Source: Enterobacteria phage vB_EcoS_IME18. Taken from it: 50,354 bases of DNA. How positions within the stretch are numbered: position 1 is the first letter of the stretch; each line of letters begins with the position of its first letter. A program made the position numbers and the translations under genes. The stretch is taken from sequence record MH051911. One strand, given 5' to 3'. The notes beneath the pieces are model-generated. The model ran no database searches. It saw only the letters and a program-made list of their open reading frames with translations, and was not told the DNA's origin. Below are positions 42,369-46,698 of this stretch, piece after piece.

Positions 42369-45242
42369 TTAGCCTCCTGTTTTTTCCTGAATGTAATTGT
42401 AAACCTCACCGCCCTGTGAACAAGACTCTCGAATCATTTTTTTGAACATCATTTCTACGCCCTGAGAAATTCCTCTCGGATCTGAACCGTTGTCAACTTT
42501 AACCTCCATACCCCTAACATCAACGACCGTCCCGCCTGCTGATTGGTTCACTGCCTTCGGTGCGGATTTAGATGCGTTAAATCCAGATGTTGCAACACTA
42601 CCCGCAGCGGCAGCAAGCGAGGTAACAGCGACGCCTGAAGATAAAGACCTAAAACCAGAGACGGCAGGCGTAGGAGTTGCCTGTGATACCGCAGAAGCAC
42701 CAGGCGACACCCCTCCAGCAAAGCTCCACGTCTTACCGCCCATCATGCCTGAGATCGTATTGAAGATTACCATTTGAGCAATCATCTTGATAATCATGCT
42801 AATGATGTTTTTCGCAAAGTCCTCAAAATTTGCCTTACCTGTAGTCAGGAATTGGGTCATCATGTCACTCATTCCGTTAAGTGAACTTGACGCGATATCA
42901 TACACGTTGCCGTACATATCCATTGCAGAATCGCCGTAATCTGCAAATGCACTTTCAGCACCTGCTAACCAGTCAGAACGCTTGGCATCTTCCGCAGCAT
43001 AGTAATCATTTTGTGCCTTGATCATGTTCTGGAGTTTTTCATCTCCTTCGCTGCCACCTGCATTAATATAATCAGTAGTGATCTTAGCCAACTCAGCTTG
43101 CCTTTCCATTTCTCGGGTGCTCATCCCTCGAGACGCGTTTAGCTGTTCTGTAGCTGCCGTCAAATCATTGACAAATTTCAGTGATTTATCGGTAAGAGCG
43201 TTCAACTGCTGCTGCTTAACAATCTGATCGCCAATCTCAGCCTTTTGTTTCGCAAGCTCTAAAACCTTCTCTTGGTTTGCAAGTAGTGCTTTTTCTTCCG
43301 CAGATAGCTGACGCTTAGAACTAGCTTCTCGAAGAACAGCAATTGTAGCCTCAGTCGTAAACAGCGCCTTTCTCTGTGCTGATATTTTTTGCCCGATCTC
43401 CTTGTGCTCCTGCAAAACCTTAAGCTGCGCTTTGAGTGAAATTAACTCCTTATCGAATTGCTCTGTAGGTGAGCGTAAAATTTTCGACTGCTTATTTCGT
43501 TCACGGTTTCGCTTTTCGATCTCTTCCGCTTCTTCCTTGATAGCGTCCTTAGTTTCCTGGCTATACTGCTTTTCAAGAGTACGGCGCTGCTTCATTGCTT
43601 CAATGTATCCCATCTCACCTTTTTCAACACGGGCGTTAATGGCATCAAGCTCTGAAGCTAACTGATCGTAGTTGTCACGAGAACTTTTTACAATATTCTC
43701 CTGTTCCTTTAGTACATCAGCACCAAAATCACTCATGCCAGGCAGGGACTGTGTAGCCTTAATTGCAGATGCGATAAAGTTTGAGATGTACTCATCACCC
43801 TTAGCAAGAATCATTTTCACCTGAATTACTGTACCTTGAACTACGTCAATAATCAGGTTTAACGCTCCGAGCGTATGATCCCCAACCCATCCCCACGCAT
43901 CAGAGGCCCACTGCTTAATATCGTTCCACATTTTTTCAAGAGGTGTGGCATTGTCTGCGATCGACTTCATTCGTTTTTCCATTACATCGGCGAATAATTT
44001 CGTGGCTTCAGACACTGCCTCCGTTTCACCCTTAGTACGGCTTAGAGTATCGATGTATGTCAGCTGTCCTTTTTCTAAAAAATTGTATTGCTCGTTAAGT
44101 TTAGCTAAACCCTTTACAGGATCGCTTGCGATTTTATCGAACTCAGCGATGATTTTACTTGCTGATTTTCCGGTTGCTGTCGACCACTCAGCGGTAGCTT
44201 TTGTGATGTTCTGAATCTGCTCTCGAGTATACTTCCCCGTACTGGCAAGTTCAGTAACAATATCACGAATACTTCCAACGGTTGAGTTACTTGTCTGCGC
44301 AACCTTTTTAGCAACCAAATCAAGATCATCAGCCGTAACTCCAGCATAACCTCCAGTCTCAATAAGTGCATTCTGCATATCAGTTATTGACTTGTAAGAG
44401 TCATAACCAGCTTTCGCAAGAAGACCTAAAGAACCGACAAGAACACCAACGCCAACTGTGACAGGATTAATATAGCTTAGCAATACCTTAAACGTATTCC
44501 CGATCCCGCCGAACGAGTCCTTGATTTGACCGCCTTGCTGGATGGCAACCATCCAAACTGGCATACCGGACGCAAGAGATGTAACGACGTCGGTAATCTG
44601 TGCAGGAAGCATTCGCATTGCCTGCCTATATTGCCCTGCGCTAATACCTGCGGCATTCATGGCTCTACCCTGTTCTTTCAGTTTTGCGATCAGGGGCGCT
44701 GCTTCATTTGATAGTCCAAGCTGAGCCGCTTTCAGTTCCATTAACTCTGCGTGAGTTTTGCCAATGGCGTTAACCTGACTGTTCAGGGAATCCATGAACG
44801 CTTTGTTTTTCGCTGCCGCCTGCTCTTTTGCTTTCGCCTCCTGCAATGCTGCCTGACCTTCTTCTGTAAGCATGGCCCGGCTGCGAGCAAGTTTTGCGTT
44901 TTGCATATCCAGCATTTCACCTAACCGGAAAAATGTTTCATCTGGAACGACGCCCTTTTGCCAGAGCTTGTCAAGCTGCTGAGATGCAATCTTCAGCCTT
45001 TCCATTTTTGATACTGTAGGATCGATTGCCTTTTCTACAGCCTCGTACTCTTTTCGCTGGCGCTTAAGTTGCTCAGCGTGTTCTTTAGCCTTCTGTTTTG
45101 CAACCTCAGCCTCATTGATTAAAGACCCCATAGAGTCAGCGGCTTGGTCGTTAGCTTTTGAAAACTCTTTCAATGACTTGACGGCGCGCTGCACTGTCGA
45201 CACATCAACGTCAAGCGATAGACCTGCTACCTTATCAACCAT
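42369..45242 (-). CDS. tail tape measure protein
   Basis: 957 aa, long Ala/Gln/Lys-rich coiled-coil regions, Gly/Met-rich hydrophobic segment; follows G/G-T chaperones. Confidence 0.85.
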
Positions 45243-45258
45243 ATAACCCCCTTATATA

Positions 45259-45281
45259 CAAAAAAACCGCCAAACGGCGGC
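45259..45281 (-). terminator. hairpin plus U-run between chaperone and tape measure genes
   Basis: Stem CCGCC/GGCGG with A-run on plus (U-run on minus transcript). Confidence 0.45.
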
Positions 45282-45916
45282 TTAGTTATTCTGCTTAGCA
45301 ATCATTTCGAGCGCTTTCGCTTCCATGATCCTAACGTCCTGCAATGCCAGTTCTTCATCCTCTATTTTATAGATTTTAAACAACATAGGCAAAACATTAT
45401 AATCAAGACCGTAAGCGCCAGCGCCTGAACTTCTCCACTGAGTGAGCATTGATGTAAAAACATTCCAAGCCTTCAACATTTCAGCGTCGCCAATTATCGT
45501 TTCCGGTTCCTCGTCTTCATAGTCAGAAAGACTTAAACCAACCGATCGCAATTGTTCCTCTGTTGGCGGCTTCTGATATAACAGATAGACCGCCTTTTTT
45601 AGTTTTTTGCGCGGTGTCCGGCAAGCGCCTTGATGTAAGTCGCTGTCAGGTTGTACGCTGCGGAAGGATAATACTGAACCAGTTTTCGTGAATTTTCTTC
45701 GTTAAATTCTTCTTCAAGGTTCCATCCTGACGCGATCTTGGTAATGAACTCGCTGTCGTTCATTTCTCCCTGGTTAGCATACATGTCCTGAACTTCTTTA
45801 CTGGAAAGGTGGCGCACAGTGAAAATGATCGTTGCATCTTCACCGTTAGGCATGGTGAAGGTAACTGGAAGTTTGAAGTCTGGAAGTTGACCAAGAACGA
45901 AATTAAATTTAGCCAT
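45282..45916 (-). CDS. tail assembly chaperone G-T fusion (via programmed -1 frameshift)
   Basis: T-frame ORF is open upstream of its annotated start and overlaps G; slippery heptamer A_AAA_AAC at G stop. Confidence 0.6.
45599..45916 (-). CDS. tail assembly chaperone (lambda gpG-like)
   Basis: 105 aa; SD AGGAGAA; ends in slippery site AAAAAAC followed by TAA. Confidence 0.65.
   Translation of the reverse strand: MAKFNFVLGQLPDFKLPVTFTMPNGEDATIIFTVRHLSSKEVQDMYANQGEMNDSEFITKIASGWNLEEEFNEENSRKLVQYYPSAAYNLTATYIKALAGHRAKN
45602..45608 (-). other. -1 programmed ribosomal frameshift slippery site AAAAAAC
   Basis: mRNA reads GCA AAA AAC TAA; -1 slip gives AAA AAA CUA and continues into 45282..45598 frame. 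Confidence 0.6.
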
Positions 45917-45938
45917 GATATTTCTCCTGATTGGTTAA

Positions 45939-45953
45939 TAGCACTTTTTGTTA
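45939..45953 (+). promoter_or_regulatory. palindromic box adjacent to chaperone G RBS
   Basis: TAGCACTTTTTGTTA about 20 bp upstream of G start on opposite strand; TACGAT 22 nt downstream on plus. Confidence 0.4.
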
Positions 45954-45989
45954 AAAGCAAAGAGTGCAAAGTTGATACGATGATTTTAC

Positions 45990-46017
45990 AGAAATGAAGA
46001 AGGGGGCGCAAGCCCCC
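45990..46017 (-). terminator. intrinsic terminator after major tail gene
   Basis: Stem GGGGGC/GCCCCC, loop GCAA, U-rich tract on minus transcript. Confidence 0.6.
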
Positions 46018-46029
46018 TGTGGATATGAT

Positions 46030-46698
46030 TTAGGCACCTGGAGATGCCAGAGTTGATGAGACGAAAGTAAAGTCACCTTTCAGGGATACGGCGAGTTCCA
46101 CCGTTTCCATTTCGTTAACCTGCGTGGATGGGATATCGTTAAACGACAAGATGCCAGCCCACATACGCATTTCGCTCGCTTTCGGCACGTACATTCGAAC
46201 CGCTGTTACCTGGCCAGACGAATCCAGCTTGCGCAGAATCGGGTAGATCGGGTTATCAAATTCGTGCGCGAAAGTGTACGTTAGCGATACCGCAGATTTA
46301 AACGTTGGGATCTGCTGCTCTTTATCGTCGGACAAACACTGATAAGTGTAATACTGCTGCTCGCCGCCGTCCTGACCAATCTCCTGTACGCAAGGAATCT
46401 CAGTCCAGCCAGTAATTTTTGCAAAGCTCATTGTACCGCCAGTCGGGAAAACAAGAGTATCAGAGGTGTCAATTCCAGCAAGAGTGATGCTTGTTTCTTG
46501 AGCGTCAGTAACAATTAGCACTCGACTAACCATCTTAGCCCAAGTTGACTGAGTTACAATAACGTAATCGCCTTTTACTAAGTCACCTTTAGATGCAACT
46601 GTAGCAACAGGATTATCTGCATTAGTGATAGCGGTCGCCTCAATCTCTACTCCGCGAGAGGTTTCCACGAAAATTTGCGCGCCATTTGGTAAGTGCAT
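46030..46698 (-). CDS. major tail protein (lambda gpV-like)
   Basis: 222 aa; position upstream of chaperone pair; followed by strong terminator. Confidence 0.65.
   Translation of the reverse strand: MHLPNGAQIFVETSRGVEIEATAITNADNPVATVASKGDLVKGDYVIVTQSTWAKMVSRVLIVTDAQETSITLAGIDTSDTLVFPTGGTMSFAKITGWTEIPCVQEIGQDGGEQQYYTYQCLSDDKEQQIPTFKSAVSLTYTFAHEFDNPIYPILRKLDSSGQVTAVRMYVPKASEMRMWAGILSFNDIPSTQVNEMETVELAVSLKGDFTFVSSTLASPGA

Follow-up and report, generated by a model that had tools for sequence, protein, structure and literature searches.

In phage lambda, the tail assembly proteins G and GT are produced by a low-level translational frameshift that gives much G and little GT, and neither protein is present in the virion (Levin, Hendrix and Casjens 1993; Xu, Hendrix and Duda 2004, 2013, in the account of these works in PMC5009743). 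The ratio of G to GT is about 30:1 (PMC5009743). Among the T1-like phages, the papers on Citrobacter phage Stevie (PMC4319613), Klebsiella phage Skenny (PMC6763657) and E. coli phage Rogue1 (PMC3496638) predict a conserved translational frameshift or a fusion of the G-T type, for Rogue1 as a hypothesis that includes a "downstream pseudoknot". In addition, the record of Klebsiella phage Sparks carries a joined coding sequence labelled "frameshift product". We found no experimental demonstration of the frameshift in T1-like phages in the literature.

Here we describe the corresponding locus of Enterobacteria phage vB_EcoS_IME18 (sequence record MH051911). The whole stretch of 50,354 nucleotides that was analysed is hereinafter designated the window. 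A previous sequence-only reading of the window proposed that a programmed −1 frameshift at the end of chaperone gene G produces a G-T fusion as in lambda, and that the start listed for the T open reading frame is not a real initiation site.

Results

Gene neighbourhood of the locus

The window belongs to a T1-like Tunavirus. A 901-base query around the site matches 67 phage records, phage T1 among them, and the closest match is Shigella phage pSf-2, with 99% identity; the records of LHE71 and pSf-2 are classed as Tunavirus, Drexlerviridae. The minus strand carries the structural genes of the region. Pfam matches and open reading frames define the gene order as tail tube, G, T (in the −1 frame) and tape measure, with the following features.

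46030..46698, minus strand: tail tube (major tail) protein gene, upstream neighbour (PF08813, E 1.6e-70)
46001..46018, minus strand: terminator-like hairpin in the gap between the tail tube gene and G; the equivalent site of T1 is annotated as a rho-independent terminator
45924..45928, minus strand: Shine-Dalgarno sequence AGGAG, 7 nt 5' of the G start codon ATG at 45916 (read from the sequence)
45599..45916, minus strand: gene G, tail assembly (tape measure) chaperone, the zero-frame product (open reading frame; PF08748; phrog_569 and phrog_17368)
45282..45602, minus strand: T segment, 106 codons of the −1 frame (translation; PF08809; phrog_17368; coding signature)
45264..45283, minus strand: terminator-like hairpin that overlaps the stop codon of T, just ahead of the tape measure gene; the equivalent is annotated in T1
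42369..45242, minus strand: tape measure protein gene, downstream neighbour (PF06791 and PF09718)
42366-42013, minus strand: lambda-M-like minor tail protein gene (PF05939)

G and T are flanked by the tail tube gene on one side and the tape measure gene on the other, which is where chaperone genes of this type are classically found.

Gene G ends in a slippery heptamer

Gene G extends from ATG at 45916 to TAA at 45601-45599 and encodes a protein of 105 aa (11.96 kDa). The protein belongs to the Phage_TAC_4 family (PF08748), with an E-value of 1.5e-36 and a score of 125.8 bits against a gathering cutoff of 21.1. The 3' end of the gene reads ...GGA CAC CGC GCA AAA AAC TAA. Specifically, the final sense codons GCA (45610-08), AAA (45607-05) and AAC (45604-02) are followed directly by the stop codon, and the heptamer A_AAA_AAC therefore has the phase that a tandem slip requires.

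45602..45608, minus strand: A_AAA_AAC, the slippery heptamer; its phase relative to the G frame is X_XXY_YYZ (mRNA index 308, phase 2)
45599..45601, minus strand: zero-frame stop codon TAA adjoining the heptamer (read from the sequence)

The proposal that A_AAA_AAC directly precedes the G stop is thus borne out: the motif is present, is in the right phase and is kept in 83 of 109 relatives. AAAAAAC as such is not enriched in the window, which holds 20 copies against 14.4 ± 4.1 expected, so it is the position and the conservation of the heptamer, not its bare count, that make it non-random. The description of the heptamer as canonical holds for its X_XXY_YYZ form, but it is chiefly for eukaryotic viruses that A_AAA_AAC counts as canonical. 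E. coli ribosomes shift far less readily on it than on A_AAA_AAG (Atkins et al. 2016, PMC5009743), and this weakness fits a low-level shift, in which a small fraction of GT is wanted.

The −1 frame encodes a T domain

In the −1 frame, no stop codon interrupts the stretch between 45699, which lies 100 nt upstream of the G stop, and the TAA at 45284-45282. Past the heptamer this frame reads CTA AAA AAG GCG GTC TAT..., translated as LKKAVYLLYQKPPTEEQLRSV..., and the first T codon is CTA at 45602-45600. When the −1 shift proposed at 45602-45608 is introduced, translation stays open to 45282 and gives a G-T fusion of 211 aa, complement(join(45602..45916, 45282..45602)), with a conceptual mass of 24.09 kDa. 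All coordinates given in the earlier reading are correct.

The T segment matches DUF1799 (PF08809) with an E-value of 3.4e-12 and a score of 46.8 bits against a gathering cutoff of 26. Both halves of the fusion also match a single profile, phrog_17368, which has 213 positions; G aligns with 1-107 of these and T with 109-212. Because G and T lie in one profile, this family must be built from fused G-T proteins. A word-indexed protein search with the fusion returned one match of 123 aa, covering T only. A search of PDB sequences with the GT profile gave no match, and a single-sequence AlphaFold2 model of GT, made without an alignment, has a mean pLDDT of 42, too low for the model to be used.

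The split-frame arrangement is conserved

A tblastn search with the conceptual fusion matches 1128 phage records, and each of the matches listed falls in two pieces on one strand. We collected 108 loci from annotated records and IMG/VR and located G, the G stop and the T frame in each; counts below refer to 109 sequences. T lies in the −1 frame in every good-quality sequence. The exceptions are five loci, none of which we retain as a counter-example. Two of them (L020 and L071) have several frame breaks each, and a third (L078) has a further frame break inside T; all three are read as low-quality sequence. L067 differs only by one extra A in the A run and is read as a sequencing or assembly error. 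L077 combines an extra A in the run with a second frame break and is also read as low-quality sequence.

The nine bases that precede the G stop are distributed among the sequences as follows.

NNA AAA AAC, window included: 83 sequences
GCA AAA GTY or GCC, Webervirus: 18 sequences
GCA AAG GTC, an Rtp-like group: 3 sequences
CGG GGA AAC, Ralstonia phage Dina (24% G identity): 1 sequence
CAA AAG CAC: 1 sequence
Error-ridden (L020, L071) or with an extra A that fuses G and T in frame (L067, L077): 4 sequences

The final two sense codons of G are still those of A_AAA_AAC in relatives with G identity down to 35-38%. Ralstonia phage Dina has the classical heptamer G_GGA_AAC at the same codons, and in Webervirus and part of the Rtp-like phages the G stop is preceded only by A_AAA_G or A_AAG_G, with no full heptamer. 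The codon that precedes the heptamer varies among GCA, GTA, GAA, CAA and ACA, encoding Ala, Val, Glu, Gln and Thr, respectively, yet its third base is always A. Within the heptamer, only AAA is used for Lys and only AAC for Asn; AAG and AAT never occur. AAT is absent although it would be synonymous in both frames, TTA and TTG also being Leu codons. The invariant third base, the fixed AAA and AAC codons and the swap of one heptamer for another point to selection at the nucleotide level rather than at the protein level. A stop codon, TAA or TGA, is found directly 3' of the heptamer in every relative with A_AAA_AAC or G_GGA_AAC.

The same arrangement is seen in proteins. When 1.84 billion cluster representatives were searched exhaustively with HMMER, 454 relatives were recovered, and 149 of the best 150 of them cover the G half only or the T half only. 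The G-half relatives are about 100-110 aa long and end at about query residue 105, and the N-termini of the T-half relatives are ragged. In the remaining one of the best 150 (P0020), the two halves are naturally fused in frame across a shortened junction. The predominance of half-only relatives indicates that the split-frame arrangement is the conserved state.

Alternative routes to the T product

The T segment could in principle be translated from a start codon of its own, with no need for a fusion.

45549..45551, minus strand: TTG, start of T in the open reading frame list and internal Leu codon of GT (open reading frame list; start-codon survey)

This TTG, at 45551-45549, is codon 17 after the slip point. 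Independent initiation here or at a later ATG could draw on an SD-like GAGGA at 45560-45556, 5 nt upstream of the TTG, which makes minor independent initiation possible in the window phage, and on the two separate coding sequences given in most GenBank records. GAGGA, however, arises from the codon pair GAG GAA, which reads GAA GAG in T1, and the starts of the separate T coding sequences differ between records, as expected of gene-finder defaults. TTG is found at the window position in only 16 of 86 distinct relatives. No T start codon is conserved among the 86 sequences; the position of the earliest ATG, GTG or TTG in the T frame varies between codon 4 and codon 67, out of about 105. In T1, the earliest start candidate is the ATG at codon 41, where RefSeq begins "ST39". 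The region upstream of the TTG is also coding. In the 15 codons between the end of the stop overlap and the window TTG, examined in 62 distinct junction sequences, entropy at the three codon positions of the −1 frame is 0.84, 0.92 and 1.48, and codon differences from the window are synonymous and non-synonymous in a proportion of 229:435 in the −1 frame, whereas the two remaining frames give 37:606 and 86:497. The stretch from the slip site to the TTG thus evolves as protein in the −1 frame, judging by these substitution patterns, and all 17 codons upstream of the TTG are conserved in this way up to the heptamer. The peptide LK(K/R)AVYL.YQKPPT(D/E) is kept across genera directly after the slip site, and in Dhillonvirus and Ralstonia phages it is still recognisable as LIEAARR.Y..PP. 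The earlier view that the TTG is not a real start agrees with all three lines of evidence, namely −1-frame coding upstream of it, its rarity among relatives and the wandering position of the first start codon, and we consider separate initiation of T highly improbable. The comparison supports the reading that T is translated only as the C-terminal half of GT.

The two frames could also be joined by a route other than a ribosomal slip at the terminal heptamer. RNA polymerase might add one A in the A6 run (GCAAAAAAC), so that part of the mRNA pool would carry G and T in one frame; the product would have ...AKK-LKK... at its junction in place of ...AKN-LKK.... A homopolymer is indeed present, with 6 A in the window and 7 A in Dhillonvirus-like relatives, and L067 and L077, each with one extra A, encode exactly the in-frame fusion and show what the product of an A insertion would be. 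Against this, L077 probably carries a homopolymer sequencing error, given its second frame break, and a run of 6 A is short, since efficient transcriptional slippage in bacteria has been described for about 9 A or T (PMC5009743). Furthermore, G_GGA_AAC in the Ralstonia relative and a run of only A4 in Webervirus suit re-pairing of tRNAs rather than slippage of polymerase, and the X_XXY_YYZ phase is kept whichever heptamer is present. There is thus little reason to favour transcriptional slippage, to which we assign a very low probability. Finally, the slip could take place elsewhere in the 100-nt overlap of G and T, for instance on a single tRNA at CGA_AAA_C about 80 nt upstream, with the terminal heptamer being incidental. 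The −1 frame is open over the 100 nt before the G stop, and an in-phase A_AAA tetramer lies within this overlap. Among the relatives, however, upstream −1-frame stops bound the overlap at 82, 73, 40, 28 or 7 nt, and the terminal heptamer alone is common to all. The stretch open to the shift is 28 nt in one Tunavirus relative and 7 nt in one Dhillonvirus (L025). In the latter, a −1-frame TGA lies immediately 5' of AAAAAAC, so the shift must fall within these 7 nt. The varied upstream stops leave the heptamer as the sole place that joins G to T in all lineages and rule out the alternative slip sites of the overlap; a slip elsewhere is therefore extremely unlikely.

Candidate stimulators of the shift

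A candidate stimulatory element lies downstream of the heptamer, within the T coding sequence.

45565..45594, minus strand: candidate frameshift-stimulating RNA hairpin, composed of 6 bp, an internal loop, 4 bp and a 6-nt loop; begins 7 nt past the heptamer

The hairpin (45594-45565) has a predicted stability of −15.5 kcal/mol, with a z-score of −4.09 relative to dinucleotide shuffles. Constraint on RNA was separated from constraint on protein by synonymous recoding of the T-frame codons with the codon usage of the window itself. The native hairpin is more stable than 99% of the synonymous recodings (z −2.46), and in Tunavirus and Tempevirinae relatives the corresponding z-scores range from −2.5 to −5.4. 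In an alignment of 23 distinct sequences, 86% of cells are paired, and covariation amounts to one compensatory change, a score equalled in 51 of 500 shuffles, which lends the hairpin no support, the region being too conserved and constrained by coding to be informative. No excess stability is observed in Rtp-like, Webervirus, Dhillonvirus and other lineages. Since several of these lineages keep the heptamer without the hairpin, the hairpin is not essential to the conserved mechanism; it plausibly stimulates the shift in certain lineages but does not define the site. An Rfam scan of 45100-46100, with E-values up to 10, returned chance-level matches only and no frameshift element.

Upstream of the heptamer, no GGAG or AGGA that could act as an SD-like stimulator is conserved among the relatives, and the codons there (A-G-H/Q-R) vary freely at the third position, as in GGA, GGG and GGT. 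Shifting is known to be helped when a stop codon in the A site is decoded slowly, a case termed a "shifty stop" (PMC5009743), and the zero-frame stop that abuts the heptamer possibly contributes in this way.

Discussion

Our analysis confirms the observation made in the sequence-only reading and supports its interpretation. The site is very probably the tail-assembly-chaperone programmed −1 ribosomal frameshift of a T1-like siphophage, as judged from comparison of sequences. The feature is an ordinary one, already known both as a kind and within the T1-like phages.

We infer that the slip is made by the ribosome, and the mechanism may be pictured as follows. Most ribosomes would read G to its TAA and release the 105-aa chaperone. 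A minority would slip back by one base at A_AAA_AAC (45608-45602) in a tandem slip, with tRNA-Lys moving from AAA to AAA and tRNA-Asn moving from AAC to AAA. The next codon decoded would be CTA (Leu), and reading would continue through CTA AAA AAG... to 45282, giving the 211-aa GT with a predicted junction ...HRAKN-LKKAVY.... The N-terminal half of GT would be G, and the C-terminal half would be the "T" domain (DUF1799). If the proteins act as those of lambda do, the tape measure protein would be coated by G and by the corresponding part of GT, and the T part would recruit the tail tube protein. A low rate of slipping would result in a high ratio of G to GT.

We also observe a second A_AAA_AAG in the window phage, at 45600-45594, which is in phase with the −1 frame. 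It could divert some of the shifted ribosomes into the third frame, yielding a short third product.

It is conceivable, though we would not expect it, that the G:GT ratio of T1-like phages is set not by the heptamer alone, as is said of lambda, but by a cassette of three parts: a weak A_AAA_AAC, an always-abutting stop codon and a stable hairpin, confined to Tunavirus and Tempevirinae, which lies 6-7 nt downstream and is preserved at synonymous sites. If so, the Rtp-like phages and Webervirus, in which the hairpin or the full heptamer is lost, would run a different ratio or compensate otherwise. The comparative series could serve as a natural test set for the trade-off among slip-site strength, abutting stop and 3' hairpin at a low frameshift rate.

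The main value of the finding lies in annotation, the correct product being the joined 211-aa GT protein; knowledge of phage tail assembly is unchanged by it. The records of pSf-2, T1, Rtp, PHB17 and many other phages give two separate coding sequences, often mislabelled "tail length tape measure protein". The fusion is unannotated in the GenBank and RefSeq records of pSf-2, T1 and most Tunavirus phages, and the T starts given there are arbitrary.

The locus shares several properties with the G/G-T locus of lambda. In both, the genes for the tail tube and the tape measure enclose two overlapping reading frames, the second of them in the −1 frame without a start of its own, and an in-phase X_XXY_YYZ is found near the end of G. 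The earlier claim of a G-T fusion as in lambda is therefore upheld as an analogous arrangement, for which gene order, PF08748, phrog_17368 and the joined coding sequence of Sparks argue. It does not extend to sequence homology: hhalign of a 10-sequence GT alignment against lambda GT gives no relationship (probability 0.4%, E 0.14), and the lambda proteins belong to PF06894 and PF06223, whereas the window proteins belong to PF08748 and PF08809 and have no match to PF06894 or PF06223. The sites differ as well. The heptamer is G_GGA_AAG in lambda and A_AAA_AAC here, and the stop codon lies 15 nt past the heptamer in lambda, whereas it adjoins the heptamer here. A stable hairpin is located 7 nt downstream here, in contrast to lambda, where the shift is not known to require a downstream element.

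The closest described systems are those of Stevie, Skenny, Sparks and Rogue1 (Drexlerviridae), whose genes are homologous to those of the window, with 45-65% identity, and have the same architecture. The Webervirus phages Skenny and Sparks differ in the slip site, which reads GCA AAA GTY TAA, with A_AAA_G one codon earlier instead of the full heptamer.

Outside the phages, the site resembles that of E. coli dnaX, in which a heptamer of the A_AAA_AAN type is likewise followed by a stem-loop a few nucleotides downstream. dnaX also has an upstream SD-like stimulator, whereas none is conserved here, and the hairpin of the window is a candidate of restricted lineage distribution. The dnaX heptamer is A_AAA_AAG, at which about 50% of ribosomes shift (PMC5009743), compared with the weaker A_AAA_AAC here. 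The g-t frameshift of the haloarchaeal siphoviruses HCTV-1, -2 and -5, whose hosts are archaeal, is likened to the present site by motif, and parallels the interchange of A_AAA_AAC with G_GGA_AAC among the relatives of the window phage.

Junctions between G and T in related phages

The full heptamer is absent from the junction at the stop codon of G, the tail assembly chaperone gene, in the related loci L004, L024, L074-L091 (Webervirus) and L068-L070 (Rtp-like). The junction codons there are GCA AAA GTY TAA or GCA AAG GTC TAA, and all that remains is an in-phase A_AAA_G or A_AAG_G, one codon ahead of the last sense codon of G. The −1 frame of T is kept in these loci, and a frameshift product is annotated in the record of Klebsiella phage Sparks. 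The slip in the Webervirus and Rtp-like phages would have to be made by a single tRNA-Lys.

Two database sequences, L067 (about 604-1224) and L077 (about 604-1164), have one A more, giving a run of eight that places G and T in the same frame with the junction ...REKKL... Because L077 has a second frame break, both runs are probably homopolymer errors. P0020 (206 aa), a cluster representative from the HMMER search, joins G and T in frame through a shortened junction and appears to be a genuine fusion; it is the one such case among the best 150 of 454 representatives.

A second heptamer past the shift point

The −1 frame directly past the shift point in the window reads CTA AAA AAG, and therefore contains a second heptamer in phase:

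45594-45600, minus strand, second heptamer A_AAA_AAG, −1-frame phase

A ribosome slipping again at this site would reach the third frame, which meets a stop at ~28 codons and ends ...KKGGLSVISEAANRGTIAIGWFKSF. The second A_AAA_AAG is confined to the pSf-2-like subset, with the junction common to 9 sources; at its position, T1 and the majority of the relatives carry AAA AGG or AAA CGG. Of such heptamers, A_AAA_AAG is the most shift-prone in E. coli.

Database annotation

RefSeq records, including NC_026010 (pSf-2, L002) and NC_005833 (T1, L109), give the name 'tail length tape measure protein' not just to the true tape measure protein but also to G and T, and start T at an internal codon that differs from phage to phage. 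This misleading name is also attached to PHROGs 569, 680 and 17368.

Elements flanking the G-T unit

The G-T unit is flanked on both sides by terminator-like hairpins, and a copy of the 20-nt T1-type repeat AATAGCACTTTTTGTTAAAA lies near G:

46001-46018, minus strand, terminator-like hairpin 3' of the tail tube gene
45937-45956, plus strand, T1-type repeat, between the terminator of the tail tube gene and the ribosome binding site of G
45264-45283, minus strand, terminator-like hairpin across the T stop codon, directly ahead of the tape measure gene

The bracketing hairpins could lower transcript levels in two steps, once between tube protein and chaperones and again between chaperones and tape measure. 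In the T1 record, rho-independent terminators are annotated at both equivalent sites.

The repeat occurs 22 times in the window (two mismatches or fewer; 0 expected). Almost every copy in the early and middle regions shares the strand of the adjoining long ORFs. The late structural region has two copies, at 45937 and 49700, each antisense to its gene. The same repeat is already known in T1 and Stevie (PMC4319613).
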